Positions 11,361 to 63,952 are shown, counted from the first letter of the stretch. The stretch is DNA of 64,000 bases from Candidatus Dormiibacterota bacterium (GCA_035652335.1 DASRDZ010000077.1:17025-81024), one strand, 5' to 3'. The notes: a model not told the origin generated them from the letters alone. Made by a program: numbers and translations.

Positions 11361-11367
11361 CGCCCGC

Positions 11368-47298: not shown

Positions 47299-47379
47299 GG
47301 TGCATCTCCTTGAGCGCCGGGCGCGGCGAGGCGCGCCGTGAGTGACGCGCGAGCCACATGGTCGGGCCGGCCGGGCGGG

Positions 47380-47412
47380 TTTGCAAACTGTGAATATAGT
47401 CATCACAATTAC
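47380..47412 (+). promoter_or_regulatory. AT-rich near-palindromic element (TGTGA-N9-TCACA / TGAATATAGTCA) upstream of the bicupin gene. Candidate operator or promoter.
   Basis: ttgcaaactgTGTGAatatagtcaTCACAattac is the only strongly AT-rich stretch for kilobases. It is followed by GGAGGAGAGCTC-ATG (a strong SD) for the bicupin. Confidence 0.35.
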
Positions 47413-47472
47413 CTGCTGGCGCCCGCGGGCGGCCTGGCCGGGTGCGGTTTCGGGGCGGCTGGAGGAGAGCTC

Positions 47473-48384
47473 ATGGCCATCGTGTCCGAGGCAGCGGGAC
47501 GTGCGATCAGCAGGGGCGTGCGACTCGCCCGGCTCAAGCCCGGCGGCAAGGACGGCCCGGACGGCGTCGTCCGCGACAGCGACGAGCTCTGCGGCTACCA
47601 GTGGAGCGAGCGCTTCCTGCTCGGCTCGCCGGACGCCCCATGGCGCATGGCCATCCCCGACATCCGCATGCCCGCCAACCAGTTCTGGCCCATGCACTGG
47701 CACGACTGCTGGATCGCCGTCGTGGTGCTCGACGGCACCGTGCTGATCGGCGACTGGTGGATGACGCCAGGGGACGTGCTGGTCTCGCCCGCCCGGGTCG
47801 AGTACGGCCCGGTGCTGAACGGCCCCAAGGGCTGCCAGCTCCTGGAGATCTTCGCCCAGGACGTGCGCTCAGGCGGCGGCTACGGACCCGAGTTCCACGA
47901 CCATCCCACCCTCCACCACCGCCAGGCAGCAGCGAACTTCTCCGCGCGTCCCACCGGGTCGGAGCACAACGTGGGCAACCAGACCACCCCGCTCGCCACC
48001 GTCTCGGGCATCGTCACCGGCCACCTGCAGGGCGGCCAGCGCTTCGACCTCGGTGACGCGGATGATCCCGAGCGCGGCGTCATGCTCGACACCAGGCTCC
48101 CGGGCGGCGTCGCCATTCCCCGCCATCAGCATCGTGACTGGCGCGGCCTGCTCGTCTGGGACGGCAGCCTGCGCGCCGGCGACGCCGACCTCACCAAGGA
48201 CGACCTGCTGATCATCGAGCCGGGCGCCGATGTTCCCGCGTTCGAGACGGGCCCGCAGGGCGTGCACATCATGGAGTTCGCCAAGACGGCGGCCGGCGTG
48301 GCCACCGTGGTGCACAGGCGCGACCTGGACGATCCCGCCTACCGCGACGGTCTCGCGGCGATCACGGACGTGGAGGTCGAGTAG
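47473..48384 (+). CDS. Bicupin (two cupin-fold domains) protein
   Basis: Two cupin-like modules (..WPMHWHDCWIAVVVLDGTVLIGDWWMTPGDVLV.. and ..IPRHQHRDWRGLLVWDGSLRAGDADL..). Strong RBS. Confidence 0.6.
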   Translation: MAIVSEAAGRAISRGVRLARLKPGGKDGPDGVVRDSDELCGYQWSERFLLGSPDAPWRMAIPDIRMPANQFWPMHWHDCWIAVVVLDGTVLIGDWWMTPGDVLVSPARVEYGPVLNGPKGCQLLEIFAQDVRSGGGYGPEFHDHPTLHHRQAAANFSARPTGSEHNVGNQTTPLATVSGIVTGHLQGGQRFDLGDADDPERGVMLDTRLPGGVAIPRHQHRDWRGLLVWDGSLRAGDADLTKDDLLIIEPGADVPAFETGPQGVHIMEFAKTAAGVATVVHRRDLDDPAYRDGLAAITDVEVE

Positions 48385-48423
48385 CCGCGCGGGGCACGGT
48401 GGCGGTGATCTCGGCTGCGGAGA

Positions 48424-48711
48424 TCAGCGGCCGTCCCGCTCCAGGCGCTCCTGGAGCACGACGGTCACGCGCTCTCCTGGCTGCTTGCCGATCGCCCTCT
48501 GCAGGTCGGCCTTGATCGGAAGCTTGTGGCGGCCGTCGCCGAGTGCCATGAAGGAGCTCTGGAAGGCGTGGCCGTCCACCAGGCCGCGCACCTTGACCAG
48601 GCCGCGCGTCCCGAAGTACTCGGCCGAGCCGGGCATGACCACGTAGGTCCAGCCACCCTTGCTCGGGCTCTTCTCCAGGACGGCGTCGAATCGCTTGTCC
48701 AGGGTGGTCAT
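48424..48711 (-). CDS. DUF1905-family small protein
   Basis: [57 protein letters not shown] is the DUF1905 pattern. Confidence 0.65.
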
Positions 48712-48777
48712 GGGGGCTGTCCTCCGCGTGGCTGCACGTACGCCGTCGATTGTGCAGACGGGCGGTGCTTGGCGAAC

Positions 48778-49455
48778 TCATCGGGCCGAGGCGGCCGCAC
48801 GGTGCAGGAATCGAAGGCACTCGGAGTCTCCGAGAAGCTCGAGGCGGCGCCACAGAACCGGGTTGTGCGTCGACTGACTTGCGTGGCAGGCGATGGCACG
48901 GTGCTGTCGCTGCCGATCGACGGTCTGACGCACGTCCAGCTCAGCGTCGGGACGTCCCACGAACGACGCGCTGAATTCCTCGTTGAGGACCTTCGCCGTG
49001 TCCTCGGGCAGCGCCCAGGCCAGGACGTCGATCGCTGCTGACCGACCGACCGACACGGCCGCCTCGGTGGCGCGTTGGTGATCGGGATGGCCGGTGATCC
49101 CGCCCTCGTCGAAGACCAGGAGCAGGTCGGCGCCGGCGTCGCGAGCGGTGTGAGCAACGTGCCCGGCGAGCTCGGCGACGGTGATCGTGGCGAGCTGTCC
49201 GTCGGCATAGTCGAGCAGGCGAGCCCGCGTGGCTCCGAGCATCGCCGCCGCCCGTTCGAACTCCTGCGCGCGCACCTCTCGAAGCTCGCCCAAGGTCTCG
49301 GACAGGGTCGACGCTTCGCCATGCGTGAAGCACAGGATCGACATCTCCGCGCCCGCCGCGCCGAAGGCGTCCAGCACTGCGCCGAGGCCGAAGGATTCGT
49401 CGTCGGGATGCGCCACCACGGCGAGGACTCGCCGATACCCCGAAAGAGCGGACAT
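48778..49455 (-). CDS. PIG-L/LmbE-family deacetylase (second copy in window)
   Basis: LAVVAHPDDESFGLG...GHPDHQRATEA. Confidence 0.8.
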   Translation of the reverse strand: MSALSGYRRVLAVVAHPDDESFGLGAVLDAFGAAGAEMSILCFTHGEASTLSETLGELREVRAQEFERAAAMLGATRARLLDYADGQLATITVAELAGHVAHTARDAGADLLLVFDEGGITGHPDHQRATEAAVSVGRSAAIDVLAWALPEDTAKVLNEEFSASFVGRPDAELDVRQTVDRQRQHRAIACHASQSTHNPVLWRRLELLGDSECLRFLHRAAASAR

Positions 49456-49518
49456 GGCGCAACTCTAGGCGTCCGTCGGGACCCGCCGGGATCGATGATC
49501 CGACACGTTGCGGCGGCC

Positions 49519-50778
49519 TCAGCGGGAGACGGGCGTTTCCCGCCCTGGTGCCACACGCTCGAAGAAGGACCGCCACCCGTCGGTCGGGACGCCGATCAGG
49601 CGCAGCCAGCGGCCTCTGCCGCCGCCCTCGGCCTCGATGAGCCCGAAGATGCTCCCGAGCAGGAGGGACCGCTGCGTCTCGTCCGCAGCCTCCCACGCCG
49701 CGAGCAGGTCGACCACCTGGCGCTGGCACCACTCCACGTCGCCGACGCCCTCGCGAGCCGCGGCCTCGTCGCGGATGCGCTGCTGCTCGGCACGGATGTC
49801 CTCGCGCTTGGCGAGGAAGGTGCCCCAGTCGTCCTCTCCGAACTCGTACAGGCGCTTGGCGCGGGCCAACTGCTCGTCCAGGCGCCGGATGGCGGCCTCG
49901 GCGGGCTGCCGGGGATCGGCCGGCTTGCCCACCGCCTCCCGCAGAATCCCGCGGTAGACCTCATCCACCTGGCCGCCGGGCAGGCAGCGGTAAAGCTCTT
50001 GGCGGATGGCCTCCTCAATGCGTGCCGCGCTGATCCACGATGCCGAGCACCGGATGGTCGCCGCCGGGTAGGCGGCTGAGCGGTTCCGCCGCGCCTGATG
50101 GCAGGCGTAGTAGAGGTAGACCTGACCGTCCCGGCTCACCGATTCGCCGTGCATGGTGCCGCCGCACTTGGCGCAGCGAAGGATCGGGGTGAGCGGATAG
50201 CTCCAGTGCTTGCGCACCGGGCTGTTGCAGCGCCGGTTGCGGACCCGGACGCTCTGACAGGCGTCCCAGGTCTCCTGATCCACCAGGGCAGGATGCCTGC
50301 CCTCGATCCATTGCTCGTCGCCGCTTCGCCAGCGGGTGACGCGGACCAGCCCTAGGTACACCCGGTTCTTGAGGATGTCCTTCACCACGTCGCCCGTGAA
50401 GATGACGGCCTGCGGGCGGCTGTGGTTCTCCTTCTTCGGCCCGCGCGCAGGCTTGATCCCCTGGCGGTTCAGATGGCCTGCCAAGTGCTCGAAGCTGTAG
50501 CGGCCCGTGGCGTAGAGGGTGAAGATGATGCGGATCACGGGCGCCGCGTCGGGGTCCTCCACCACGTCGCCGTCGACGCGCATGTAGCCCTGCGGGATGA
50601 CGCCGAGGAGGACGCCCTGCCGCTTCAGGAACGCCAGGTTGTCACGCACCTTGCGGGCGATCTTCTCCCGTTCCTCCTGCGCGAAGATCGCCTTCATCTT
50701 CCACGACAGCTTGTCGGCGTTCGAGATCAGGCCGTGGGCATCGAATACGAGGATGCCGCGCTCGGCCATGTCGGCCAT
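49519..50778 (-). pseudogene. Large serine recombinase. It is N-terminally truncated and lacks the catalytic-Ser subdomain, so it is likely a remnant of an integrated element.
   Basis: It begins inside the resolvase alpha-E region (GILVFDAHGLISNADKLSWKMKAIFAQEEREKIARKVRDNLAFLKRQG). It is followed by a recombinase domain, a zinc ribbon (CAKCGGTMHG..YYACHQ) and a coiled-coil. An in-frame stop lies 4 codons upstream of the first Met, so there is no room for the catalytic N-terminus. Confidence 0.65.
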
Positions 50779-50805
50779 GAAGCGGCTATGTCAACATTCG
50801 CGCAT

Positions 50806-51334
50806 GCGAGAAGCTGGCGACAACACCGCGGAAGTCATGCTCCTGTTGGCTGCGCTCCGGTCATTGAGCGCGGAGGATTGGGCGGGCTTGGGCGAGGCAG
50901 CGAGGCGTCGAGAGACCATTGCGATTGAGGAAGCGTGGGCCGACCCCGTGGACGAGCGTTACTGGGCGGCCAGGGCCAGCCTCGGCGAGATGTGCGACAG
51001 GGTCCGCGACGAGGTTCTGAGGATTGCCGAGGCGGCATTAGAGAGAGCGGAGCCGTCGGCGCGCGACAAGTTGGCAGTGACCGATCTGGCTCTACAAGGC
51101 GATGTTGCCGAGCTCGCGGCCGGGCGGCCCATGACAACGAACGCGGGCGACTTGGTCGCCCACCTCCTGAGGCTTATTAGCGACTTGGACGCTGGCGCGG
51201 TCGCTGCTGCCGACGCGGCCGAGGCCGTCGCTTTGCGGCACCACGTCGATAGCGGGCAAGTGATAAGTCTCCTGAGCGTGATCGCCCACGTTCTGCCACG
51301 CGCGCTGCTTGAGACGCTGGACTTCCCTGCGTAA
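50806..51334 (+). CDS. Hypothetical protein
   Basis: 176-aa ORF with no recognisable motif. Lower-GC codon usage than core genes. Confidence 0.3.
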
Positions 51335-51545
51335 CGCGAATGCTTCCGCCTTGCACTACGAACGTAGCGCCGTAGGTGAAACTGTGTGCAGATGAGGTTG
51401 GGCGGCGAAGGACAGGTGTGGACACGACAGGGGTGTAGTGGATCGGGGCGTGCGGGGAGGCCGGAGAGGGCGGGTGCGGGGACGATGGGGACGATGGCCA
51501 GTAGGGGGGTGCTCTACGGCTGCGGCGTTCAGGCACCCGGGGTGA

Positions 51546-52136
51546 TTAGGCTGCCTGGAGGGCGCTGCCCGCGATCAGGATTTGCATCGTCACCGGCGTC
51601 GGGCAGAGCGCCGCCCCCAGCGGAACGTAGATCGCCGTCGCGGCGCCTGGGAGGGCCGCTGAGCTGAGTTGCTTGCCGTTGCCGCTGATGCTCTCTCCCG
51701 TCAGCAGCAGCACCGCGCCAGCCGCCACGCCCGTCCAAGTGAACACCCCGTTGATGGTGCCGTCCTGGGCTGATGCGTTGCCGTCCGTCACCGAGCCGCC
51801 CGTGATCTGGAAGGTTCCGCCTGCCTCCGAGGTGGCGCCCACCGGACAGACGCCGTTGCTGTAGCCGAACGTCGCCGTTAAGTTCGAGGCCGTTGGGCTC
51901 GTCCACGTTGCGGTCCAGGCGTTGCCAGCGCTGTCGGTCCCTGCGAAGCCGCCAACGAAGGTGCCGGTGAACGACCCTCCGCAATTCTGGACAGAGCACG
52001 GAAAGTCGGCGACTGTTCCTTGGCCGTCGAACGCCCCCCCTCCTGTGACACCTGCATGCACTGGCACTGTTGTCGTAGCCACCACGAGCGGCAAAGCAGC
52101 CACTATTGCCACGAGCTTCCGTCCTCGCTCCCGCAT
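51546..52136 (-). CDS. Secreted Gly/Thr-rich hypothetical protein
   Basis: Signal peptide (MRERGRKLVAIVAALPLVVATTTVPVHA) and a Gly/Thr/Ala beta-rich mature domain. Confidence 0.45.
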   Translation of the reverse strand: MRERGRKLVAIVAALPLVVATTTVPVHAGVTGGGAFDGQGTVADFPCSVQNCGGSFTGTFVGGFAGTDSAGNAWTATWTSPTASNLTATFGYSNGVCPVGATSEAGGTFQITGGSVTDGNASAQDGTINGVFTWTGVAAGAVLLLTGESISGNGKQLSSAALPGAATAIYVPLGAALCPTPVTMQILIAGSALQAA

Positions 52137-52225
52137 TGTCGTCCTCCGCGCCGCGATATGTGAGGCGTCGGCAGGCCGGGCGCATCTTCTGCCAGCGCCT
52201 GCACCGTTGTCTTCACTACCCGCCG

Positions 52226-54103
52226 CTAGGGACAGCGTGTGTGCCAGGTGTCTCCGTCGTCGGCCGAGCAGCGCAATCCACCATCTGCGAGCAACGCAAG
52301 AACTCGACCGCTGGCAGTTTGCATCGTCGACTGAGTCTGCGTCAGCGCAGCATCACGCGAGCTGACATCGTGCCAAACATCATCTTCGGCTGCCTGCCAT
52401 GCCACGCCCTTTCCAGTACTGCCTGCCCGCAGATAGGTCAGCCACAGCCGATCGCCGCTCACCGTCACGGCGATGGGCGAGGTGCCAGGTGGCAACGGGA
52501 CAGCCTCGAAATCTCGCCCTCCATCCACGGAGTCTGCGATGCCTGCGGCCGACCACACTGCCGTCACGCGGCTGTCGGCCGCCGCCGCGATCGCTCTCGC
52601 CGAGCTGCTCCCGACCGACTGCACCGCACAGCGGCTTACCGTCCCACCACAGGCCATCACCGTCGGTGTCGCGGCTCCGGGCGGCACCGTCCCGTCCGCG
52701 ACGTCGACGCTGAACGGCGGGGCCAGCACCACCAGGGCGGCGCCGCTCTGCCGCATCGCCGGGTTGATGCTGGCTGGGTTCCCGATTGCGGGGTACGCCA
52801 GCACCAGCTGCGGAGCCGCCCCGCCGCCCGGTTGGACGCTCAGTACACCGCTCGCTGCCGCCACGTAGAGTCGGTCGTCGCCGTTGTCGAACCCGGCTGC
52901 CAGCGCAATCCCGCCGGGCGGAGTTCCCAATGGTTCCGCCGGCGCCCCGAACCAGGGAACCACGTAGGTGGTCAGGCCCCCGACGGCGCTGCTTCCGAGG
53001 AAAATCCGTGGGTCTGCGGGAAATCGGGGCGGGAGCACGACCTGCACCGCGTCAGAGGGCGCAGGCAAGGGCGCTGCGCGCCATGACCTGCCTCCATCGG
53101 CGCTGAGGAGCAGCACCGAGCACGCGCATGCCCTCCCCTGGCCCAAGGCGACGACGGCTGGTTCGCTCAGATCGTCGGTTGCTGCGAAGCTCTGGATATG
53201 CGTGTCCTCCGGTGTCTCCGTCGCCGCCGTGCGATCGGGGAGCAACGCGGCGCCGGCCCCACCGTCCGGACCGTCGCGGCCTGGTCCGGGGGCACCGGTT
53301 GCGAGGGCGACTGCCGGGGCCACGTGGCCCTGGTGCTCCTTGGCGGCCGGTGCCGTTCTTGTGGGGCTCATACTCGCCGACACCTTGGCAATCGCTACGG
53401 GGCTAATGCTCTCCGTCGAGGCGGCCGGCGCAGCTAACGCGAGCATCACACCGAAGCTGGCGGCGAGCTGTCCCAGCGAGTCGAACGCGGGCAAGGCAGA
53501 TGCCGCCTCTGGCGCCAGGGGTCGCCGTGCCCGGCGCAGCAGTCGCCGGGCCAGGCCCGCGCCAAAGGCGAACACTCCTCGCTTCTGCGGGAAACGGTCG
53601 GGGAACCACGCCCGCAGGCGGTCGCGCCCGCGAAGCAGTCGCATTCGAGCGGTCTGTGGAGCCACGCCTAGGTGGGTCGCGATCTGGCGGGGCGTCATGC
53701 CCGCGACGGCATGGAGGCGCATTGCCTCTCGCTCGGCCGGAGGAAACGCGTCGAGAGTCGCGACGACCTCGGGATCGAGGGTCTTCAGGACCGAATCAGT
53801 CGGCACCTGCGGCTGCCGCGGCAATTCCTCGGCCGCGATCCGCGCCCGCGCCCGATAGAGCTGTTGACGGAATCTGTGCATCAGCCACGGCAGCGAGTGG
53901 TCATGCTGCCGGGGTTCCGCGAGAGCGCCCATGCGCTGAAGGAAAGCGTCGATCTCCCGATCCACCTCCGGGCGGTCCCCCAGCTGGATCACCGCCTGCT
54001 CGCGAAACAGGGCGCGGTAGTCGCCGAGCACGCTGCGCAGCTCGGCGGCGCTTGCCACTGGGACGACGGGCAGGGCTTGCCGCACTCGCCGCATCTGCCG
54101 CAC
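52226..54103 (-). CDS. Single-chain fusion: ECF sigma factor (regions 2 and 4), a transmembrane helix, and an extracytoplasmic BNR/Asp-box beta-propeller-like domain
   Basis: N-terminal sigma motifs (LPWLMHRFRQQLYRARARI; EREAMRLHAVAGMTPRQIATHLGVAPQTARMRLLRGRDRLRA). TM segment LGQLAASFGVMLALAAPAAS. The C-terminal domain carries Asp-box repeats (SADGGRSW, SVDGGRDF, SADDGDTW). One uninterrupted 625-aa frame. Confidence 0.6.
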   Translation of the reverse strand: MRQMRRVRQALPVVPVASAAELRSVLGDYRALFREQAVIQLGDRPEVDREIDAFLQRMGALAEPRQHDHSLPWLMHRFRQQLYRARARIAAEELPRQPQVPTDSVLKTLDPEVVATLDAFPPAEREAMRLHAVAGMTPRQIATHLGVAPQTARMRLLRGRDRLRAWFPDRFPQKRGVFAFGAGLARRLLRRARRPLAPEAASALPAFDSLGQLAASFGVMLALAAPAASTESISPVAIAKVSASMSPTRTAPAAKEHQGHVAPAVALATGAPGPGRDGPDGGAGAALLPDRTAATETPEDTHIQSFAATDDLSEPAVVALGQGRACACSVLLLSADGGRSWRAAPLPAPSDAVQVVLPPRFPADPRIFLGSSAVGGLTTYVVPWFGAPAEPLGTPPGGIALAAGFDNGDDRLYVAAASGVLSVQPGGGAAPQLVLAYPAIGNPASINPAMRQSGAALVVLAPPFSVDVADGTVPPGAATPTVMACGGTVSRCAVQSVGSSSARAIAAAADSRVTAVWSAAGIADSVDGGRDFEAVPLPPGTSPIAVTVSGDRLWLTYLRAGSTGKGVAWQAAEDDVWHDVSSRDAALTQTQSTMQTASGRVLALLADGGLRCSADDGDTWHTRCP

Positions 54104-54771
54104 GCGCCCTCACGCCTCCGCTTCCATCCAGCCGCAGCACGGAGCGAGACACCCACCCGGGCGCTCGCGCGCCGTCATCACCGGCTCGACCAAACTCCTT
54201 CTCGCGGCCGAGCCGCACTGATTTAACGGGACAGCCGCCGCTTGTCCGGCGTGTCGCGGTGGGGCGTTGCGCCTGACCCGCGGTCTACTCGGGAAAGGCA
54301 GCGAAGTTCGTCAATCCGAACTAAATGTGCAATTCCTGTGGCCGCTAATCCGTCACATGCTCAGACGGTCCCCGGCGCCCCGTCCCAGGGATTGCCGCCC
54401 ACTCGGGCGGCCCTGGGCGAGCGGTTGGGGCCACGATCGGCGGGCAAGCGCCCGGCGGGAGGTTCGCAGTGGCGGTCACGTTGGCGGGGAGAGGGGACGT
54501 GGCACGGTGCTCGGCATTGGCGCTCCGCGTCCCGTGCCTGGTACCCATGCGTCCCGCGGCAGGGAAGCGCCCGGAAGGGAACGGGCCCCTCATGCGGTAG
54601 GCCGCCGCGCGGGGCATGGTGCCACTCCCAGCTATGGGGCGGCGCCTCGGCGGGCAGCAGAACGCCGAGGCAGCGAAGCCACCCCGGCGCCGCTGACAAA
54701 CCCGGAGAGGCCGCATCGGCCGTGAAACCTCGTCGGCCGCCGGGTAATCAACCTCTTGTAGGAGAACATAA

Positions 54772-55878
54772 ATGCTTCTAAGGAAGCGAGTCCTGGAGGT
54801 GCCAACCCCGGACGCCGGGGACCGAGACTTCAGCGCGGCAATTCCGAGTGGTTCAACTCGGCCGCGGTGGCGACGTCGCCGCCGGGCCACCCTGTTCGCG
54901 CTGTCCGGCACGGTTGCTACGCTCATCGCCCTATTGGCGGTGAGCGGTGCGCCCCGACCGGCGCTGGCCTTCAACCTCGAAGGCTTCATGTGGCGCAACG
55001 CACACACGGACATGATTCCGAACACCAGCGACCCGGCGTTGCCGCAGTGGATGGTCAACGACGTCAGCGACGGTGCGGAGTTGTGGACCGATACCAACAC
55101 TCCCGTTCAAGTCCAGGTCTACAACAACAGTACCGGCACCACGTACCAGGCGTACTATTGGGCGTACAACGACGCCAATGACAGCAGCTCGGGCGTCGGC
55201 GGTTGCGACTACGAAGAGACGGATCAGCAAGACGGCCACAGCGTGACCTACTGCAACGACGCCTACGCCGAGTACAACATGTGTACCTACTCCGGCAACG
55301 GCTCGTGCCTTGGTGACCGGCAAGGCTCGAATGCAGCGAAGGCGACCGCTGCTCATGAGATCGGCCACGTCATCGGGCTGGCGCATTCCTGCGACAACAA
55401 CTCCCTGATGGCAGGCACCAGTTGCAACAACACTCCCTATTCCTGCCCGAGTGAAAGCAACTGCATCGTGTCTCCACAGACGGATGACGTCAACGGTGTG
55501 AACGACATCTACGGGCAATACGACTACTCGGGGCCGTCCTGCCAATTTGTCCAGGGAAGCATCAGCCCCACCAACCCGGGCGGCATTCAGCCGAAGGTAC
55601 CGCCCCTTCCCAACCCGTCCACCATTGGGCAGAACGAGATCGTCAACGGACCGGGCGGACCCGTCGGGTGGGTCAACGACCAGGAGATAGGCACCGTCCC
55701 TGCAACGCCCAATGTGCAGCCGACGCAAACCGGCCAACTCCAAGCGGCAAGCGCCGAAGAGACGGTGTTCTGGTGGATCGCGAACTGGGGCCAGTCGCCT
55801 GTCATCGTGCAGAAGACGATCGGCAAGGTGGTCGGCGTCTCAGCCGGTGGCGGCTCTACCACAGCGAGCGCTTGCTGA
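54772..55878 (+). CDS. Secreted zinc metalloprotease, metzincin (matrixin/M10-like)
   Basis: Signal peptide after an RRRRRATLFALSG run. HEIGHVIGLAH zinc-binding motif with a downstream Met-turn (SLMAG). AGGAG RBS. Confidence 0.75.
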   Translation: MLLRKRVLEVPTPDAGDRDFSAAIPSGSTRPRWRRRRRATLFALSGTVATLIALLAVSGAPRPALAFNLEGFMWRNAHTDMIPNTSDPALPQWMVNDVSDGAELWTDTNTPVQVQVYNNSTGTTYQAYYWAYNDANDSSSGVGGCDYEETDQQDGHSVTYCNDAYAEYNMCTYSGNGSCLGDRQGSNAAKATAAHEIGHVIGLAHSCDNNSLMAGTSCNNTPYSCPSESNCIVSPQTDDVNGVNDIYGQYDYSGPSCQFVQGSISPTNPGGIQPKVPPLPNPSTIGQNEIVNGPGGPVGWVNDQEIGTVPATPNVQPTQTGQLQAASAEETVFWWIANWGQSPVIVQKTIGKVVGVSAGGGSTTASAC

Positions 55879-55885
55879 GGGGATC

Positions 55886-56704
55886 ATGCCAATGCGACGC
55901 TCTGTGATCCTCCGTACGACCGTGGGGCTATTTGTGGTGACCAGCGCGTCGCTCGCGGCCATCGCCCTCGCTCGGGCGCATGGCGACCAGGTTGGCAGGG
56001 AGGCGGCTTCGGCCGCCTCCGTCACCCCCAGCAGCCATACTCCATCGCCTATGTCGGCGGAACCGGGCCCCCCGCCACCGCCGTTCCCGGCCGCTGCGCA
56101 CAGTTCACAGCCGACTGGCTTCTTCGCGGATCCTAAAGCCACCCGGCCGCTGCCCTGCGGCGGCGGAAACAATCACGGGGAGATCGCGGCAACGCCGGGC
56201 GAGGGCTGGCCGGCGACGCTCAAGGCGCTCTACGCCCAGTCGGACCTCGTGGTCGTGGCAACCGCCGCGCAGCAGATCGGCTTTTGGGAGAAGCGGCCGG
56301 AAAGCACATCGTCCGGGCCTCCCGTGTTCCGCGAGTATCGGGCAAGGACGACAACCAATCTCCACGTCACCCGCGTCATCAAGGGGACCGCGGTCCCTTG
56401 GGTGCAAATTACTGATGAGGGCGCACTGTCCTCAGAAATCTCCACGTGTCCAAACCTGACTTACCAGGTGAGCAACGAACCGCTGCCAGCGCTCGGCCAG
56501 CAGTACATCCTATTTCTACAACACACCGTTCCCGGCACGACAACTGCCGAGGGCGCAACGCTCTTTGACAAGTACGCTTCCTGGGATCGCTTCCCGATAC
56601 TCTCCGACAGCATGGTGCACAGCGAAAGGGATGTGCATCCTGCGGCAGTGGCGCTCTCACTGCAACCCGAGTCGTTGGAAGCCTTCATCGCCTCCCTCAA
56701 CTGA
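55886..56704 (+). CDS. Secreted hypothetical protein
   Basis: Signal peptide (MPMRRSVILRTTVGLFVVTSASLAAIALARA) and a Pro-rich linker (EPGPPPPPFP). Its start is 8 nt after the protease stop. Confidence 0.5.
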   Translation: MPMRRSVILRTTVGLFVVTSASLAAIALARAHGDQVGREAASAASVTPSSHTPSPMSAEPGPPPPPFPAAAHSSQPTGFFADPKATRPLPCGGGNNHGEIAATPGEGWPATLKALYAQSDLVVVATAAQQIGFWEKRPESTSSGPPVFREYRARTTTNLHVTRVIKGTAVPWVQITDEGALSSEISTCPNLTYQVSNEPLPALGQQYILFLQHTVPGTTTAEGATLFDKYASWDRFPILSDSMVHSERDVHPAAVALSLQPESLEAFIASLN

Positions 56705-56842
56705 GGCGCGAATTTCTCGTACCCGGCTTCTTGGCGAACCGGGGTGCGTACGCGCTCAAACTCAATCACCGAGTCGCTGGACGCAGCGGCACATCGGCGC
56801 CGACGATCCTGTGGGAGAACGGCGCATTAGGAGTTACCTACT

Positions 56843-57490
56843 ATGACAAAGGTACGCGCAAGCATGGCCGTCGCCCTGCTCGTAGCTCTGCAACTTGGCC
56901 CGGTACGGCCCGTCCTGGCATCGACGAATCCCGCCGTTGCGGTCCTCGCGTTCAGTGCGGTTGTCACATACAATCCACCGGCCACGGTGCTCCCGGAGGC
57001 CGTCCAGACCGTGGCCTACCCGCCAGACTGCCTCCCGACGCTTGGCAGTGGACGAGAGATCGTCAACGGCAGCGCCGCCGGGATGAACACCAGCACTGTC
57101 GTCGCCCAACTCGATCCCATACCAGGGGTGGGAACCGCCACGTTCTCACTGAGCGAACCCACCGAGACGACCACGTGTGACAACATCACGCTCGGAGAGT
57201 TCAATGTCGCCGGTTCGATGCAGCATGTAGCAATACCTGTTCCCGCGCCGCTCGTCCTTACAGATTGCAACTTCGCGCTGGAGGACATGTCCCACAAGGG
57301 TGCCGTCCTCGAAGGCCAAACCAGTCAGCAGGTGGAAGACACCTGCACAGCGAATGGACAGAGTCCGATCCCGGTTGTTGCGAACTGGTACGGGACATAT
57401 ACGCCTGCCCCGACAGACGCCAGCGGCCGCGTCTCCACTGCCGTCATCGCAGGTATCCTGACCCTCTACATCGGCGGTCCACTGGGGTAG
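56843..57490 (+). CDS. Secreted hypothetical protein
   Basis: AGGAG RBS. Signal peptide MTKVRASMAVALLVALQLGPVRPVLA. Thr/Cys-containing mature domain. Confidence 0.5.
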   Translation: MTKVRASMAVALLVALQLGPVRPVLASTNPAVAVLAFSAVVTYNPPATVLPEAVQTVAYPPDCLPTLGSGREIVNGSAAGMNTSTVVAQLDPIPGVGTATFSLSEPTETTTCDNITLGEFNVAGSMQHVAIPVPAPLVLTDCNFALEDMSHKGAVLEGQTSQQVEDTCTANGQSPIPVVANWYGTYTPAPTDASGRVSTAVIAGILTLYIGGPLG

Positions 57491-57664
57491 CGGGTGGCGG
57501 GGATGCCTTCGGGGTACAACTCCGAAGGCATCCCACTGGTTCGCAACGGCCGGCCGACGCAACTGGCCCACCATCGGGCCAAAGCGTTCGTCTGAGCACC
57601 CGCACCACCACTGTGCACCGGCAAGCGCGGTCGCTCCACTCTCTCCTACGGACGGTATATGCGC

Positions 57665-58190
57665 CTACTCGTCAGATGCTTCGGCGCGCCCTGACCTCGC
57701 TGCGCGGTGGGCGGTTCTCCTCGCACATCGAGACCTCGCCATTGGTGTCACGAGGGGCCGTGTCAGCGACGGTGTCCGTGGGCGCCGTGGAAGTGCCCGG
57801 ATCGCCGCGATCACCCGGGCAACGTCAGTCCGTAGCTCTACGACCGTCTCTGGCGATGCGGAGTGCGCTTCGAGGTTCATGGCGAGCAGCGGCAGGCGGT
57901 CGTCTCCACGTCGTCGGTGACGCGTCTTGTCGACGGCACGGTGGAGAGCCGTACGAAGCAGCAGCCCACGTACGCGATCGGGGTCCAAGTCCTCGCGCTG
58001 GACGAGCCGAAGCATCGCATCGTGGACGCAATCCTCCGCGTCATGGAAGTGCTTACCCTACGCCTTCTGCGGGCCTGAGCCGTCGCGAGACTGCCGCCGC
58101 CTTGGGCGTCTCTCTCAAGTCGGTTGAAACGGCCTATACGCGGGGTGTGCAGGATCTCCGAGCACGTCTTGACGGCGATGCTCGGCCGTC
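57665..58190. pseudogene. Fragmentary ECF sigma-factor remnants
   Basis: Region-4-like motifs on the + strand, ALDEPKHRIVDAILRVMEV (to 58078) then LSRRETAAALGVSLKSVETAYTRGVQDLRARL (58080-58180), are split by a frameshift. A region-2-like ORF lies on the - strand (57665-58015: LVQREDLDPDRVRGLLLRTALHRAVDKTRHRRR). No intact sigma ORF exists. Confidence 0.3.
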
Positions 58191-58451
58191 AAGGGTGCGT
58201 TGGCGCCGCTGACCCGGGGGGCGTTGGAATCGCCGGTCACCTAGAGGGGCCAGGCACGCCCGGCAGCGGGTGCCGTCCCAGCTTCACCAGCCCGCCGCCC
58301 GGGCCAGCTCCCCCAGGCGCTCGAGCAGGTCCAATAGGTTGGAATACGCTCCAGTCTGTAGCGGGAGACTGCGGACTCGAACTCAAGGCGGGCGGTGTTG
58401 AAGGGAGTGAGCCGGGACGCCAAGATCGCGTCCCGGCGTCACTCGGACGTC

Positions 58452-58640
58452 CTAACCGTTCTCGTCGGGTACGTCCGCGCCCTTCTTGATGGTCGTGGCG
58501 AGGTGATCTGTCGCACGCACGGCACGCGGTGGCGGCTCACCCCCGCGGAACTGAGCGGCGAGGTGCGACGTGTCCACGACCGGGCGCGGGACGGGCGGGG
58601 GCGCCTTCGGCGTCGGCGAACTGGGATCCGGTTTGGTCAA
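58452..58640 (-). CDS. Small Pro-rich hypothetical protein, co-transcribed downstream of the membrane protein
   Basis: TTG start preceded by AAAGGAG at 6 nt, 20 nt after the upstream stop. 62 aa, Pro/Ala-rich. Confidence 0.35.
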   Translation of the reverse strand: MTKPDPSSPTPKAPPPVPRPVVDTSHLAAQFRGGEPPPRAVRATDHLATTIKKGADVPDENG

Positions 58641-58659
58641 GTCGATCTCCTTTAGGCAA

Positions 58660-59193
58660 CTAGACGGACAGAAGGAAGCCCGACACGCCGCAGAGAAGCC
58701 CCACGACGAGCATCACCGCGCCGCTCTGGATCGCTAGAACCTTGCTGTCCTCGACGCCCTTGTTCTTCTTCCAGGCCGTAACGGCACGCGATGACAGCAT
58801 CTCCAAGACGTTCGCTTCGTCGTCCCCGAAGTGGTGGGTATGCAGGCCCTCGGGATCGACGGTCTCAATCGCCCGCGGCCACCAGACGATGAAGCCGGCG
58901 ACGATGGAGCCAAGAAAGAGCACCGCGGCGACGATGCACAGACAGTAGGCCAGCAGATGGGTCGGCGGGTGGGTTGCCAATGCCGTCAGGAACCCCGCCA
59001 GCGCGGCGCCGGAGGCAGCGACCTCGAACGAAGCCTTCAAGTCCAGCGAGTTGAGGTGAGCGTGCTGGTCCGAGAGGAGACGAAGGTTGGTGTCGCACAC
59101 CAGCCGGGCGCTCGGGAGGGAGACATCGTCGTGCTCGGACTCGGCGACACGGAGCGGCGGCGTCATACCGAACAATTGTACTGATCTCGTCAA
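58660..59193 (-). CDS. Hypothetical small integral membrane protein (3 predicted TM helices)
   Basis: 177 aa with a soluble N-terminal ~65 aa, then a TM pair (LAGFLTALA.. / LLAYCLCIVAAVLFLGSIVAGFIVWW), a short basic loop and a C-terminal TM. Confidence 0.45.
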   Translation of the reverse strand: MTRSVQLFGMTPPLRVAESEHDDVSLPSARLVCDTNLRLLSDQHAHLNSLDLKASFEVAASGAALAGFLTALATHPPTHLLAYCLCIVAAVLFLGSIVAGFIVWWPRAIETVDPEGLHTHHFGDDEANVLEMLSSRAVTAWKKNKGVEDSKVLAIQSGAVMLVVGLLCGVSGFLLSV

Positions 59194-59571
59194 GAAGTGG
59201 CGCCCCCCCGCCTGCCGCGGACGGCGACCAGCGCAGAGGGGCGGCTCCCCGCGCGCGTACCCACATCCTTACGCACGCACATAGGCGACAGGTGGGTACA
59301 CGAGGGCATGGCGGCGCTCCCGACAGACCGATTCTGAGCACAAGCCGTGCCCTTCTGTGCCCCCGCACCATCCGAAGGTCGCTCTGGAAATGCGCGCATT
59401 TCGCAGGACGGTGCTACGTGGTGTCGCCAGTCGCCGGCCTGGCACAGTCTTGCCTGTCCTACGGACGCCAGCGGCGCGCAGCCTGTGGCCGCATGCTGGC
59501 ACTCGCTCCGTGGGAGTGCTAGCCTGTCGTCCGAAGCTACGCGACGTGCACCCGCCACGGAGGAAGCCGGA

Positions 59572-59949
59572 TTGTTGACCAACGACCTGTTCTACGCCGC
59601 CGAGAAGTTCCACCAAGCGCTCGACGCGCTCGCAACAGGGGAGGGCGTGTTGCGTGAGCGGCTCATCACCGCATGCATGTGCAACATCACTGCTCACCGG
59701 GCACACCCAATGCGCGCTGGCCTTGGGCCGAAGATGCCTGCCGAGCTAGTCGAGCGGATCTACGATTTCACGGACCGCGTGACTGCTACAGCGGCAGTGG
59801 GTAACGAGGGCACGCTCACCGCCACGCTCAACGCCATGTCCGACGAGGAACTACGCAGCACCGCCGAGGAGTTGTCTTCCCTCAGCCTGAAGGTCATCGA
59901 GACCTTCGAGCGCGACGACGCGCGGTCGAGTTCCACGTCAGGGGTGTAG
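59572..59949 (+). CDS. Hypothetical alpha-helical protein
   Basis: GGAGGA RBS ~8 nt before the TTG-TTG at 59572/59575. ~125 aa (LLTNDLFYAAEKFHQALDALATGEGVLRERL...). No recognisable family. Confidence 0.4.
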   Translation: MLTNDLFYAAEKFHQALDALATGEGVLRERLITACMCNITAHRAHPMRAGLGPKMPAELVERIYDFTDRVTATAAVGNEGTLTATLNAMSDEELRSTAEELSSLSLKVIETFERDDARSSSTSGV

Positions 59950-60090
59950 CTGCCGTTGCGATCTCCCACTGGTCCCGGCCGCAGCGGTGTGGGTCGCGCC
60001 CTCCCAAGCGAGGAAGGTAGCCCAAGCACGGCGGGCCTGGTTCACAAACCGAGGCGATAAGCGAACTGGACTCCCCTGTCGATTTCGGCA

Positions 60091-60165
60091 GTGGAGCGGG
60101 AGACGGGGCTCGAACCCGCAACTTCAACCTTGGGAAGGTTGCACTCTACCGTTGAGTTACTCCCG
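60091..60165 (-). tRNA. tRNA-Gly (anticodon CCC)
   Basis: Reverse complement GCGGGAGTAACTCAACGGTAGAGTGCAACCTTCCCAAGGTTGAAGTTGCGGGTTCGAGCCCCGTCTCCCGCTCCA. Cloverleaf with a 7-bp acceptor, anticodon loop TTCCCAA, T-loop TTCGAGC, discriminator U and CCA. Confidence 0.85.
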
Positions 60166-60229
60166 CTCGACGGCCGGCGCCGAGTCTAGCACCCCCCGCG
60201 GCCGGGCCCCGGTGCTACCGTCCCTGCCC

Positions 60230-60508
60230 ATGATCACCGCGTTCCTCATGCTCGTCTGCGAGCCGGCGCGCATCCACCAGGTGGGCCGAGCGCTGGCCGA
60301 CGCCGACGGCGTGGCCGAGGTCTACACCACGACGGGCGACATCGACTTCATCGCAGTAGTGCGAGTGCAAGACCTGGACGCCCTGGCCACGCTGGTCACC
60401 GAGCGCGTGTCCACGCTTCCCGGCGTCTCGCGCACCACCACCCACCTGGCCATGCGCTCCTACGGCCGCGCCGAGGTCGCCGCCGCCTACGACATCGGGC
60501 TTGACTGA
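60230..60508 (+). CDS. Stand-alone Lrp/AsnC-type ligand-binding (RAM) domain protein. No HTH.
   Basis: 92 aa (MITAFLMLVCEPARIHQVGRALADADGVAEVYTTTGDIDFIAVVRVQDLDALATLVTERVSTLPGVSRTTTHLAM) matching the AsnC C-terminal domain only. Confidence 0.7.
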   Translation: MITAFLMLVCEPARIHQVGRALADADGVAEVYTTTGDIDFIAVVRVQDLDALATLVTERVSTLPGVSRTTTHLAMRSYGRAEVAAAYDIGLD

Positions 60509-61193
60509 CGCGCCTGCGCTGGAGGCGCGCCAGGTCCGGCGCAGCCTGCCGCTCGGCGACCAGCGGATCGAGATCCTCCGGGGCATCGACCTCGTCATCC
60601 AGCCCGGTGAGTCGGTCGCGCTGATGGGCCCGAGCGGCAGCGGGAAGTCGACGCTGCTGGGCATCCTCGCCGGCCTCGACCATCCCACCGAGGGACACGT
60701 GCTGGTCGACGGCATCGACATCACCGACATGCCCGAGTCGCGCCTCGCGGTGGTGCGCAACGCGAAGATCGGCATGGTCTTCCAGGCGTTCAACCTCATC
60801 CCCACGTTGACCGCACAGGAGAACGTCGAGGTCCCCCTCTACGTGGGCGACCACCCCGGCTCCGCCGCCGAGCGCGCCCGCCAGATGCTCGACCTCGTCG
60901 GGCTCGCCCACCGAACCGGCCACAAGCCCAACCAGCTGAGCGGCGGCGAGCAGCAGCGCGTCGCCATCGCCCGCGCGCTGGCCACCGACCCGGCCATCGT
61001 CATCGCCGACGAGCCCACCGGGAACCTCGACGCGCACACCGGCGACCTCGTCCTCCAGCTGCTCGCCGACCTCCGCGCCCGGCTGGGCACCACCTACCTC
61101 ATCGCCACCCACGACCAGCGGATCGCGGCGCGCGCCGAGCGGACCCTGACCATCGTCGACGGGTTGCTCGAGAACCACCAGGCGCCGCGGTAA
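60501..61193 (+). CDS. ABC transporter ATP-binding protein, MacB/LolD (FtsE-like) subfamily
   Basis: [41 protein letters not shown] start that overlaps the upstream stop. Confidence 0.85.
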
Positions 61194-61198
61194 CCACC

Positions 61199-63952
61199 AT
61201 GCGTGGCCGCAACCGCCTCTACCTCTCCTACGCCTTCCGCTCCCTCCGACGCGGCGGCCAGCGCAGCCTGCTGGCGATCTTCTGCGTCGCCGTCGGCGTC
61301 ATGGCGGTGGTGGCGCTGCGCCTCGCGGGTGACATGGTCAGCCTCTCGCTGACCAGCAACGTCCGCGAGGTCAACGGCGGCGACGTGTCGATGCAGTCGA
61401 CTGCGCTGCCCCTGGCGCGCTCCGACCTGCAGCCGCTCGACCAGCTGAAGCAGCAGGGCCTGGTCACCGACTGGATCGGCCTGGGCACCTCGCAGGCCGC
61501 GACGGTGCGCAAGCTGCCGGGCGGCCACTCGGTGACCGTCCCCCTGTACGTGGTCGACGACCCGTCACACTTCCCCCTCGTCGGCGCGGGAGAGCTCGAC
61601 CAGCCGTCGGGCGCGACGTATGCGCAGCGGTTGAAGGACGGCACCGTCGTCGTGTCGCGCTTCGTCGCCGACGAGGGCGAGCTGGCGCCGGGCGACCGTG
61701 CCCACGTCACCGTCGCCGGCGGCCAGGGCACCGACGTGACCGTCGGCGGCGTCGCCCCCAACACGCGCTTCGCCGGGCAGATCGCCGTCGGCTACGTCAC
61801 CCGGGCCACCTACACGCAGCTGGTGCCCGACGCGCAACCCCGCTACGGCCTGGTCGAGCTCACCACGCCGAGCAGCGACGCCGCCTCGCAGGTGGCCACC
61901 GACCTGCGCAACGACTTCCCCCAGGCGACGGTGATCACCGTGCAGGACGCCGTCGACGAGAACGTCCAGGCCTCCACCGACACCAGCCGCTTCCTGCAGA
62001 TCGTCGGGCTCCTCGCCCTGCTCATCGGCGGCGTCGGCATCGTCAACACCATGCAGGTCATGCTCTCGCGCCGCCGCGTCGAGATCGCCATGCTCAAGAC
62101 CAGCGGCTACCGCCGTCGCGACCTCTACGCGCTCTTCGCCGTGGAGGCCGGCATGCTCGGCCTCGCCGGGGGCACGCTCGGCACCGCGGTCGGCGTCGGC
62201 CTCAGTGACGTCGTGCGCATCCTCGTGCAGAACCTCTTCAACATCCCCATCACCTTCAGCATCGACGCAGGGACGGTGGCCACCGGAGTGCTGATCGGCC
62301 TGCTGACGTCGCTCATCTTCGGGCTGCTGCCCATCGTGCGGGCTGCCGCGGTGCGTCCCGTTGCGGTGCTGCGCGACCTGGGCGAGGGCACCAGCGCCGG
62401 CAGCGCCGCGCAGACCGTCGGGCTGTACGCCCTGCTGGTGCTGCTCTTCACCGCACTCAGCGCGGGGTTGCTGGGCAGCCTCGGCGTCGCCATCGCCTCG
62501 GTCATCGGCGCGCTGGTGGTGATCCTCCTCCTCGCCGGCATCTTCGCGGGGATCGTCACCCTGATCGGCCACCTGCCCGTCCCCGAGCGACCGGCGCCGG
62601 CGCAGATCGTCGCCGCAGTTGCGGTGCTCGCGCTGTCGCTGCTCATCACGGTGAGCCAGCGGGCGGTCGGCACCTGCCTGCTCATCGGCGCCATCGCCTA
62701 CACGATCATGGTGCTGCTGCCCCGCAACCGCCGCACCTCGGTGAAGCTCGCGCTGCGCTCGCTGGCGCGCGCCCGCGGACGCACCACGGCGACGCTGGTG
62801 GCGCTGTTCGCCGGCGTCTTCACCATCGGCCTCATCCTCGTCCTCGGCCAGAACATCACCAGCAAGATCGAGAGCGGGATCAGCAAGGCGACCAACTTCA
62901 ACGTCTTCGCCATCGCCTCCTCGCGCGACGCCGCCAAGGCCAGGGCGACGACGCAGAACCTCGCCGGGGTGCAGGAGCGGCGCATCACCGAGGACGTCGC
63001 CACCACCCCGACGCAGATCAACGGCCAGCCGCTCAGCTCCGCCCTCCCGGCGCAGCCGCAGCCCTCGCCCGCCGCCAATCCCGAACGCAACGCGTTCCGG
63101 CTCAGCGCGCTCAACGGCGTGGAGGGCTACGACCTCGGCTCCGGCCAGCTCCCCGACACCACGGCGAGCCTCGGCCGCGTCCTCGACGGCGGCGACGCCG
63201 GCAGCACCAACGTGATGCTGCGCAACGACATCCACACCGGCGACCTGCACATCCAGGTCGGCGACACCGTCACCCTGCAGCAGACCACCACCGGCAGGAG
63301 CGTCACGGTCACCGTCGTCGGGTTCTACACGACGGTGAGCCGCACCAGCAGCGGCCTGGTCTTCCGCACCTTCTTCAGCCCGGTCGTCGCCGACGTCTCG
63401 GTGGTGCAGAAGCTCGGGCTCGACCAGGCCAGCACGGTGATCGGCATGAAGCTCGACCCGCAGCAGAGCCGGGCCGCGCTGACCACCCTCGACGACGCGC
63501 TCCCCGATGCCACCATCATCAACCTCGCCGACTTCGGCGCCATCGTGAACGAGATCGTCAGCAACCTGGTCAACCTGCTGATCGCGCTGGCCAGCCTCGC
63601 CCTCTTCGCCGGGATCATCATCATCGCCAACGCGGTGGCCCTGGCCATGCTGGAGCGGCGGCGCGAGATCGGCATCCTCAAGTCGGTGGGACACACCAGC
63701 ACCAGCGTGCTGGGACAGGTGCTGGTGGAGAACGGCACCGTCGGCGCCATCGCCGGGATCACCGGGATGCTGCTGGTCACGGTGGCCACCGCCCTGCTGG
63801 GCGCCTACGTGCTCGACACCGACCTCAGCGTGGGCGGGCCCATCGTCGCCGCCGTCGCGGTCGGCGTCACCGCGCTGACCACAGTCACCGCGGCTCTGGT
63901 CGCCTGGGGTCCGACACGCGCGCGTCCACTCGACGTGCTGCGATACGAATAG
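61199..63952 (+). CDS. FtsX-like ABC permease with duplicated FtsX/MacB domains (917 aa)
   Basis: Two MacB-type periplasmic/FtsX modules, each followed by a 3-TM bundle (..FLQIVGLLALLIGGVGIVNTMQVMLSRRRVEIAMLKTSG.. and ..NLLIALASLALFAGIIIIANAVALAMLERRREIGILKSVG..). Confidence 0.8.
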   Translation: MRGRNRLYLSYAFRSLRRGGQRSLLAIFCVAVGVMAVVALRLAGDMVSLSLTSNVREVNGGDVSMQSTALPLARSDLQPLDQLKQQGLVTDWIGLGTSQAATVRKLPGGHSVTVPLYVVDDPSHFPLVGAGELDQPSGATYAQRLKDGTVVVSRFVADEGELAPGDRAHVTVAGGQGTDVTVGGVAPNTRFAGQIAVGYVTRATYTQLVPDAQPRYGLVELTTPSSDAASQVATDLRNDFPQATVITVQDAVDENVQASTDTSRFLQIVGLLALLIGGVGIVNTMQVMLSRRRVEIAMLKTSGYRRRDLYALFAVEAGMLGLAGGTLGTAVGVGLSDVVRILVQNLFNIPITFSIDAGTVATGVLIGLLTSLIFGLLPIVRAAAVRPVAVLRDLGEGTSAGSAAQTVGLYALLVLLFTALSAGLLGSLGVAIASVIGALVVILLLAGIFAGIVTLIGHLPVPERPAPAQIVAAVAVLALSLLITVSQRAVGTCLLIGAIAYTIMVLLPRNRRTSVKLALRSLARARGRTTATLVALFAGVFTIGLILVLGQNITSKIESGISKATNFNVFAIASSRDAAKARATTQNLAGVQERRITEDVATTPTQINGQPLSSALPAQPQPSPAANPERNAFRLSALNGVEGYDLGSGQLPDTTASLGRVLDGGDAGSTNVMLRNDIHTGDLHIQVGDTVTLQQTTTGRSVTVTVVGFYTTVSRTSSGLVFRTFFSPVVADVSVVQKLGLDQASTVIGMKLDPQQSRAALTTLDDALPDATIINLADFGAIVNEIVSNLVNLLIALASLALFAGIIIIANAVALAMLERRREIGILKSVGHTSTSVLGQVLVENGTVGAIAGITGMLLVTVATALLGAYVLDTDLSVGGPIVAAVAVGVTALTTVTAALVAWGPTRARPLDVLRYE

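Follow-up and report, generated by a model that had tools for sequence, protein, structure and literature searches.

A probable immobilised composite island at the 3' end of a tRNA-Gly gene

How did a block of A/T-richer DNA, with a broken serine recombinase gene at one edge and the 3' end of a tRNA-Gly(CCC) gene at the other, come to lie in the genome of a Candidatus Dormiibacterota bacterium? The block occupies positions 49521-60107 of a 64,000-nucleotide stretch (GCA_035652335.1 DASRDZ010000077.1:17025-81024), which we call the window and whose overall GC is ~72%. Serine integrases have been described as not known, or only rarely known, to target tRNA genes (PMC4383910, PMC7192596, PMC3218068). 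We consider it likely that the block, ~10.6 kb long, is a composite integrative island that has become immobilised at the tRNA 3' end, a reading carried by its composition, its boundaries, the truncation of its recombinase, the link of that recombinase's family to tRNA-Gly and the modules it shares with another tRNA-Gly island.

The block stands out by composition. GC is 0.733 at 1-49518, 0.691 in the recombinase gene, 0.664 at 50786-60091 and 0.710 at 60092-64000, and in no 9.3-kb window outside the block does it fall below 0.714. Tetranucleotide distance from the rest of the window peaks at ~55-58 kb, with a z of 8.3. Sliding analyses thus show a clearly non-uniform composition and bear out the A/T-richer block at ~50.8-60.1 kb that a preliminary description of this DNA, made by reading the sequence, had noticed. 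Both island junctions are covered by a second assembly, ERZ27279688, which matches window 42226-60653 with 3 mismatches in 18.4 kb, so the arrangement is not an assembly artefact; the 56-kb contig Ga0070741_10002051 (soil metagenome JGI 3300005529) is also identical to the window over the stretches compared.

The right edge of the block falls in the only tRNA that ARAGORN found in the window, tRNA-Gly(CCC) at 60092-60166 on the minus strand. Its 3' end (60095-60107, tRNA positions 60-72) recurs exactly, on the tRNA's own strand, as an orphan 13-nt copy, CCCGTCTCCCGCT, at 49521-49533, where it overlaps the last recombinase codons and forms a distal core resembling that of an attachment (att) site. 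This direct repeat came from a short-word BLAST search with the tRNA and its trailer, and corrects the preliminary description, in which no obvious one had been found by eye; in a shuffled window, ~0.01 exact copies of the 13-mer would be expected. A general repeat search of 44-64 kb did not report it, and when a 25-mer of the tRNA 3' end was searched with up to 3 mismatches, so as to catch longer or degenerate copies, nothing but the tRNA itself came back. The boundary opposite the tRNA therefore does hold a displaced tRNA 3'-end fragment in direct orientation, although it is short, at 13 nt, and is also intrinsic to the att site of the recombinase family.

That recombinase is a 419-codon open reading frame (ORF) at 49519-50778 on the minus strand. 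It keeps the Recombinase (PF07508, 2.6e-16), Zn-ribbon (Zn_ribbon_recom, PF13408, 2.1e-9) and C-terminal regions and matches phrog_95 'integrase' at 1.7e-57, whereas Pfam finds no Resolvase domain (PF00239) in it, no remnant of that domain lies upstream in any frame, and an in-frame stop stands just upstream. A homology search gave 70 relatives (a scan of IMG/VR with the recombinase alignment gave none), the full-length ones being 545-575 residues long and equipped with the Resolvase domain. In what follows, P numbers denote homologous proteins and L numbers compared contigs or loci, L014 being the contig of P0002 and L103 that of P0013. Aligned with P0002, its closest intact relative (572 residues, 85% identity), the window ORF begins at residue 141, so residues 1-140 are missing, and nucleotide similarity to L014 spans window 50785-49520, from the truncation point to one base past the 13-mer. 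On the other side of the truncation point lies a breakpoint zone (50786-50836) where similarity to the intact recombinase stops and the lower-GC block begins. The lost part takes in the YARQSKSD motif of the homologues, which we take to hold the nucleophilic serine by analogy with YDRQS of phiC31. Judged by its sequence, the window recombinase is a truncated relic of a large serine recombinase and not a functional member. The preliminary description was thus right that the catalytic N-terminus is gone, with a stop upstream, but ~140 residues rather than ~80 are missing; its picture of an immobilised element at the tRNA-Gly 3' end gains support from the composition, the loss of similarity at the tRNA and this truncation.

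The homologues connect the recombinase with tRNA-Gly. Among ~53 of them with complete C-termini, 43 end in ...LERETG(F/L)EPATSTL(A/G)RSRSTK, which is translated antisense tRNA-Gly, and the tail of P0018 is antisense tRNA-Gly(CCC) in another reading frame. A complete tRNA-Gly overlaps the integrase 3' end in L017 (UCC) and in L098-L102 (GCC), the integrase of L016 runs into a partial tRNA-Gly(GCC) at the contig end, and a C-terminal recombinase remnant in L006 runs into tRNA-Gly(CCC). These tails mark a clade of serine integrases that target tRNA-Gly 3' ends and whose att site overlaps the integrase stop. The integration polarity noted in the preliminary description fits for that reason, even though the argument itself was borrowed from tyrosine integrases. 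The integrase ORFs read through their own attachment sites, so to speak, and the last 15-25 residues differ by junction class (L103:1690-1740; L098:4480-4560); by tail, P0001-P0071 comprise 43 of the antisense-tRNA class (RETGFEPATSTLARSRSTK), 4 palindromic ones (RETGVSR..., including L103) and 4 ending 'LHTWSCSNL'.

The L103 site, GGTACTGGAGCGGGAGAC-GGGG-GTCTCCCGCGGGAGTACC, has dyad symmetry at 15 of 18 positions, and we read it as the unintegrated attP form, overlapping the integrase stop codon. The window holds a comparable design. Its integrase-proximal half-site, GTGGCACCAGGGCGGGAAACG (49534-49554, minus strand), has its homologue in the arm ahead of antisense tRNA-Gly in L006, L016, L017 and L098-L102. 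Directly upstream of the 13-mer, the inner 12 nt of this half-site, GGGCGGGAAACG, repeat the tRNA 3' end in inverted and degenerate form, and with the 13-mer they make up a near-palindrome with a CC centre at the recombinase end, of the same palindromic design as in L103. The L103 palindrome and the junction sequences suggest that the integrase would recombine attP with attB at a 2-bp crossover.

The tRNA locus itself is variable. The closest genomes, picked out by a scan of genome contigs with FtsX, are three metagenome-assembled genomes with contigs L005, L006 and L007 (DATMMX010000012, DASYKI010000016 and CAZCJX010000014), whose FtsX permease is 76-82% identical to that of the window. All three keep the gene order tRNA-Gly(CCC), small AsnC-type protein, ABC ATPase and FtsX permease, and their nucleotide similarity to the window ends at 60084 (L005), 60095 (L006) and 60092 (L007), that is, at the tRNA 3' end, exactly where the preliminary description had put the end of the block. 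Neither the island cargo nor the PIG-L/DUF1905/cupin left flank is present in any of them (within 8.8 kb). Beyond the tRNA, each instead carries its own lower-GC insert or one of lower GC at third codon positions (GC3). The L005 insert (4380-8701) has an XRE-type helix-turn-helix (HTH) gene, an HTH-nucleotidyltransferase fusion with a HepT partner (an MNT/HepT toxin-antitoxin pair) and two unknown genes. The L006 insert (2500-8860, GC 0.58-0.66) has Fic, Metal_CEHH beside a 547-residue ThiF/E1-like protein, and the C-terminal recombinase-family remnant abutting the tRNA, a gene set that looks defence- or conjugation-like; that of L007 (6590-8931) comprises an IS481 transposase together with what is left, after an internal deletion, of a second type of serine integrase, which is intact in L104. 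Differing inserts at one tRNA mean that the site is a hotspot and that the block is not conserved, being absent from all three relatives. The preliminary description would have been refuted by shared gene content at this tRNA in all relatives, and such content is not what these genomes show. The AsnC-type gene directly upstream of the tRNA (window 60233-60508) encodes a 91-residue stand-alone Lrp/AsnC ligand-binding domain with 85-91% identity in all three; it probably starts at the ATG at 60233, the mechanical ORF call (59987-60508) overlapping the tRNA.

The interior of the island points to more than one element. L104 is a ~15-kb island adjoining tRNA-Gly(GCC) that carries P0073, one of the homologues of a sigma-BNR fusion encoded in the window; the other is in L110. 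Its order runs from a host gene through a remnant of a same-family recombinase (residues 180-418), an RHS toxin, the sigma fusion, a 214-residue partner, a PycTM-like gene and two unknown genes to an intact 553-residue serine integrase of the second type, which overlaps the tRNA, and then to high-GC host genes. The RHS gene (L104:3887-9406) encodes a 1839-residue RHS/YD-repeat protein (DUF6531, RHS_repeat, TEN_YD-shell), a probable polymorphic toxin. The 196-residue partner of the window fusion is 30% identical to the 214-residue protein encoded after the fusion in L104 (a gene of ~220 codons follows the fusion in L110), and the window's 168-residue PycTM-like protein has a homologue there at 27-31% identity. 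Some of the cargo, at least, thus moves about with tRNA-Gly islands. The idea that the low-GC cargo is unrelated to any serine integrase was rejected, as L104 shares its modules at tRNA-Gly(GCC) together with an intact integrase.

A third tRNA 3'-end motif lies inside the block at 58360-58382, in the tRNA's orientation (minus strand); on the plus strand it reads AGCGGGAGACT and then GCGGACTCGAAC, and a fuzzy core search scored it as a 10/11 match followed by T-loop-like sequence. This att-like remnant adjoins a conserved element-end sequence (58284-58381, minus strand) that in L104 directly follows the same-family recombinase remnant (80% identity over 99 nt to L104 2916-3014; the encoded peptide is 88% identical over 25 residues). 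In all, the window island and L104 have three non-coding segments in common, in scrambled order. The internal remnant, the shared segments and the sigma pseudogene fragments described below together indicate a mosaic of at least two tRNA-Gly-targeting elements instead of a single intact element. In L104, the second element appears to have arms GGTTCGAA...AGTCTG.AGC on its two sides in dyad symmetry, a placement that suggests the second integrase type as their partner.

Taken together, these features would fit the following course. Small mobile elements of this lineage would carry large serine integrases and, as in L103, an unintegrated attachment site that forms a near-palindrome over the integrase stop codon and includes a copy of the 3' strand of the tRNA-Gly acceptor and T-stem. 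If this site recombined with its counterpart in a tRNA-Gly gene, the element would be inserted just after the tRNA, which would regenerate the 3' end of the tRNA (the gene at 60092-60166) and leave a short orphan copy at the far end, here the 13-mer at the integrase 3' end. We infer the position of this crossover, the order of the events and an insertion in reverse orientation relative to most family members. The integrase would then have lost its first ~140 codons, the catalytic serine included, and with that serine lost the island would be unable to excise on its own. The interior would have been reshuffled, probably with a second tRNA-Gly-targeting element, leaving the att-like remnant at 58360.

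The reverse orientation may be native to a sub-clade. In canonical members the integrase is convergent with the tRNA and adjacent to it, whereas in the window it lies 10.5 kb away, is co-directional with the tRNA and has its 3' end toward the left flank. In both the window and L014 (own site at ~2860-2940), the arm that exactly matches the tRNA lies downstream of the integrase, in sense, and the integrase-proximal arm is the degenerate one. If the exact arm regenerates the tRNA, the integrase ends up at the far end beside the displaced 13-mer, as is seen. L014 shows the same palindromic end next to a different host-like flank, with an AAA_16 regulator of a kind also found in the window. We favour a sub-clade whose site polarity would be flipped, the main alternative being an inversion after integration.

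A number of observations weigh against an island of this history. Its orientation is opposite to that of 43 canonical family members, and the 13-mer, being built into the family's attachment site, is not fully independent junction evidence. The first 8-12 nt after the tRNA are common to the window and L005, and the right edge may lie at ~60084 instead of within the tRNA gene. The tRNA-proximal arm bears no likeness to the L014 site, and one inversion would not account for how the window relates to L104. At the left junction, the outer arm has no dyad symmetry (3/9 positions, counted by eye), which fits a hybrid junction but does not prove one; the outer-arm counts at the window junctions, 3/9 and 5/10, are too weak for assigning arms. 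Furthermore, no empty site, with the tRNA joined to the PIG-L flank, was found in L005, L006 or L007, because the left flank is not syntenic in these relatives, and a metagenome scan with the PIG-L protein gave homologues of at most 61% identity, none of them near a tRNA-Gly. An exact-protein look-up of the ABC ATPase gave no record. An empty site is predicted to read GGTTCGAGCCCCGTCTCCCGCTGAGGCCGCCGCAACGTGTCGG, with the tRNA 3' end joined to the left flank; at the true junction its tRNA would run directly into GAGGCCGCCGCAACG and then the PIG-L gene.

Three other histories have to be set against this one. The simplest, essentially that of the preliminary description, has a single element bringing all of 49.5-60.1 kb, with the 5' deletion in the integrase as the only later change. 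The 13-nt repeats do bracket the entire block, and in L104 the sigma fusion, its partner and the PycTM-like gene do travel with serine integrases at tRNA-Gly. We nevertheless hold it to be fairly unlikely, for the att-like remnant at 58360 lies beside the sequence that marks the boundary of two elements in L104, the order of the segments in common with L104 is scrambled, the block contains sigma pseudogene fragments, the tRNA-proximal arm differs from the L014 site, and the recombinase's closest intact relatives carry other modules (Zot-type in L016; Replic_Relax and PIN in L098-L102). Alternatively, a canonical integration could have been followed by an inversion of segment 49534-58359 between its two att sites. 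With this segment flipped back, the integrase arm would run into GGACTCGAAC as in L006, a junction of canonical appearance, and the left junction would look like that of L104. A non-palindromic central dinucleotide should, however, block inversion by serine integrases, and the dinucleotide here is non-palindromic if we are right in taking it to be GG. L014, an independent contig with an intact integrase, has the same palindromic junction beside a different flank, which argues for a native sub-clade design, and one inversion does not account for the order of the L104-shared segments; we think this course unlikely. Nor does the scrambled order fit a full history of just one inversion, or of a simple tandem array, and we rejected both.

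The locus could also be a variable hotspot of recombination and deletion, to which the recombinase fragment came in some other way with its own unintegrated site, so that the 13-mer is no junction at all. In its favour, the four genomes all have different DNA past the tRNA, the search for an empty site gave none, and the palindromic site resembles the unintegrated attP of L103. On the other hand, an identical core in a tRNA-Gly gene 10.5 kb away, on the strand expected of a junction pair, is very unlikely to arise by chance, and the low-GC block runs exactly from one core copy to the other. As a host junction would lead one to expect, the similarity to L014 breaks off immediately past the core and the two flanks are different, and the outer arm lacks the dyad symmetry that is seen in L103 and, weakly, in L014. 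This course strikes us as very unlikely, and we retain the composite island as the best explanation of the block.

The intact relatives offer a view of what the parent elements could have been. L016, whose integrase is 70% identical, is an 8,293-nt (8.3-kb) contig from a soil metagenome of high GC (~67%). It encodes a Zot-family ATPase (Pfam 29.8 bits, the threshold being 20.3; phrog_197, 5.6e-13), and it is a candidate integrative filamentous-phage-like (inovirus-like) element. It also has many ORFs of 40-95 codons, a 735-residue protein of unknown function, an endonuclease-like gene and a serine integrase going into tRNA-Gly(GCC); the endonuclease-like gene is found upstream of the integrase in L014 as well. 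The P0037 elements, L098-L102, instead pair a Replic_Relax protein with a PIN toxin-antitoxin pair. The integrase module is thus common to different small integrative elements. The window contains none of the Zot, Replic_Relax, PIN or endonuclease-like genes of these parent-type elements. A filamentous (inovirus-like) prophage in the window was ruled out, as the cargo has no PHROG match and Zot occurs only in the relative L016.

Islands of comparable build are known. In the Dehalococcoides ssrA islands, the DsiB serine integrase acts at the tmRNA gene, with 20-bp repeats and tandem arrays (McMurdie et al. 2011, PMC3146451). Like the block described here, they have a large serine recombinase (~540 residues there) beside one att end, a tRNA-like gene whose 3' end is the insertion point, boundaries marked by short direct repeats, low GC and variable cargo, and some of them lack integration modules and may be chromosomally fixed (PMC3146451). 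They differ in their target, the tmRNA, and in an integration apparatus not seen here, which combines a CcrB-homologue integrase with the small recombinase DsiA and a six-gene integration module; moreover, the repeat is 20 bp there and 13 nt in the window, where the integrase ORF overlaps the att site itself. In Mycobacterium, serine recombinases of actinomycete integrative and conjugative elements (AICEs) integrate into a tRNA-Leu gene, a situation called rare (Ghinet et al. 2011, PMC3218068). As described, these too are PF07508-type recombinases that put small integrative elements into a tRNA gene, but the tRNA, the host phylum and the element type (a conjugative one of actinomycetes) are different.

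For the Ralstonia filamentous phage phiRSM, a 13-base attP equal to the tRNA-Ser 3' end and a resolvase-like serine recombinase are reported (Askora et al. 2011, as cited in PMC4471427). Going by that citation, the system shares with ours a serine recombinase and a 13-nt core equal to a tRNA 3' end, and the relative L016 has its Zot-family ATPase; the phiRSM integrase, as cited there, is of the small resolvase/invertase type without Recombinase and Zn-ribbon domains, and the window has no filamentous-phage genes. With tRNA islands made by tyrosine integrases, the block shares the Islander signature: one end has an intact tRNA and the opposite end a displaced direct 3' fragment, the integrase lies close to an end, the composition is foreign and elements accrete in tandem (PMC4383910). 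It is unlike them in the family of its integrase and in its repeat of 13 nt, where 25-76 bp is typical (PMC4383910).

The island itself is thus a decayed tRNA-linked genomic island, which is a known type, and the tRNA-Gly-targeting integrase clade is the more interesting by-product. For this genome, the analysis marks ~10.6 kb as horizontally acquired and now fixed, and explains a recombinase pseudogene. More broadly, over 40 soil-metagenome homologues with 3' ends fused to antisense tRNA-Gly stand against the supposed rarity of tRNA targeting by serine integrases. We put forward, with belief and doubt about evenly balanced, an undescribed clade of large serine integrases that would act on the acceptor/T-stem 3' strand of tRNA-Gly (CCC, GCC and UCC) through a near-palindromic attP in the integrase stop region (as in L103), their last 15-25 residues changing on integration. 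Polarity would be flipped in the sub-clade of the window and P0002, giving the opposite insertion, and repeated hits would build mosaic islands in which the sigma-BNR and PycTM-like module recurs. Such a clade offers a conserved, ubiquitous natural target and a compact site, and could be of interest both to island-finding software and to integrase prospecting. The islands are also an example of how accessory islands are assembled in a little-known soil lineage, which is probably Dormibacterota, although its relatives carry conflicting labels.

The cargo is as the preliminary description had essentially laid it out, and it is indeed not phage-like, without a single PHROG phage match. Its central gene encodes the membrane-tethered sigma-BNR fusion (625 residues, 52226-54103, minus strand), in which a sigma region 4 of the extracytoplasmic function (ECF) kind is followed by a hydrophobic, Ala/Pro-rich linker and a BNR/Asp-box C-terminal domain with conserved SxDGGxxW motifs. 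Pfam reports Sigma70_r4_2 at 1e-8, and the match to SigE in PDB covers residues 81-167. Sigma-70 region 2 has no Pfam match in the fusion; the N-terminal 80 residues are conserved across the three homologues. A word-indexed search of 5.8 billion proteins gave only the two homologues in L104 and L110. Downstream lies the gene of its partner, a secreted-looking protein with a signal-like N-terminus (196 residues, 51546-52136, minus strand). A secreted metzincin-type metalloprotease (368 residues, 54772-55878, plus strand) matches Peptidase_M10 at 8.5e-9 as well as Reprolysin_5 and Reprolysin_4, so Pfam confirms two proteins named in the preliminary description, this metzincin and a fusion with sigma-70 region 4.

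Two secreted-looking unknowns follow on the plus strand, of 272 residues (55886-56704) and 215 residues (56843-57490), again with signal-like N-termini. The signal-like hydrophobic N-termini of the three unknown proteins agree with the earlier reading of them as secreted, having been judged by eye. Decayed ECF sigma fragments (57665-58212) also match what had been described, in part: a region-4 half on the plus strand (~58072-58158) aligns to positions 26-54 of the 54-position Sigma70_r4_2 profile with E = 3e-4, short of the gathering threshold, and a region-2-like piece on the minus strand (57665-58050) was seen by eye in a six-frame reading. The remaining gene calls are a hypothetical protein of 165 residues near the recombinase (50837-51334, plus strand), which matches no family, has no PADLOC or PHROG match and yields nothing in a Pfam scan of the longer in-frame ORF 50597-51334 either, and one of 125 residues near the tRNA (59572-59949, plus strand).

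The small membrane protein of 168 residues (58660-59166, minus strand) is weakly PycTM-like. A precomputed PF18967 flag was not recovered with current Pfam, and what remains is a weak PADLOC match to PycTM (2.1e-5, 22 bits). Among the neighbouring ORFs scanned, which include part of those between 59193 and 60092, none matches the cyclase family PF00211. A Pycsar system was rejected, given the weak PycTM match and no cyclase partner among the neighbouring ORFs scanned.

Outside the island, the window carries ordinary host genes, among them those for polyphosphate kinase, Nramp, MMPL, MFS and ABC transporters and an AAA-LuxR regulator. The three closest genomes are labelled Candidatus Dormiibacterota, 'Candidatus Angelobacter' and uncultured Actinomycetes, and matches further off come from Ktedonobacterales and Dormiibacterota. 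The longest ORF in its frame at 338-3394 has 1018 codons, with an MFS domain and then two ABC ATPase domains; it may represent a fusion of an uncommon kind, or several neighbouring genes that the mechanical ORF call ran together. Composition deviates a second time in the window, more mildly than in the island, at 9648-13434 (GC 0.68-0.70, tetranucleotide z 2.4-2.7), over two large ORFs of 570 and 714 codons without a Pfam match. At 35000-38500, over the gene of an AAA_16-GerE (LuxR-type) regulator, GC is very high (0.77-0.79) and the tetranucleotide z is 3.2.

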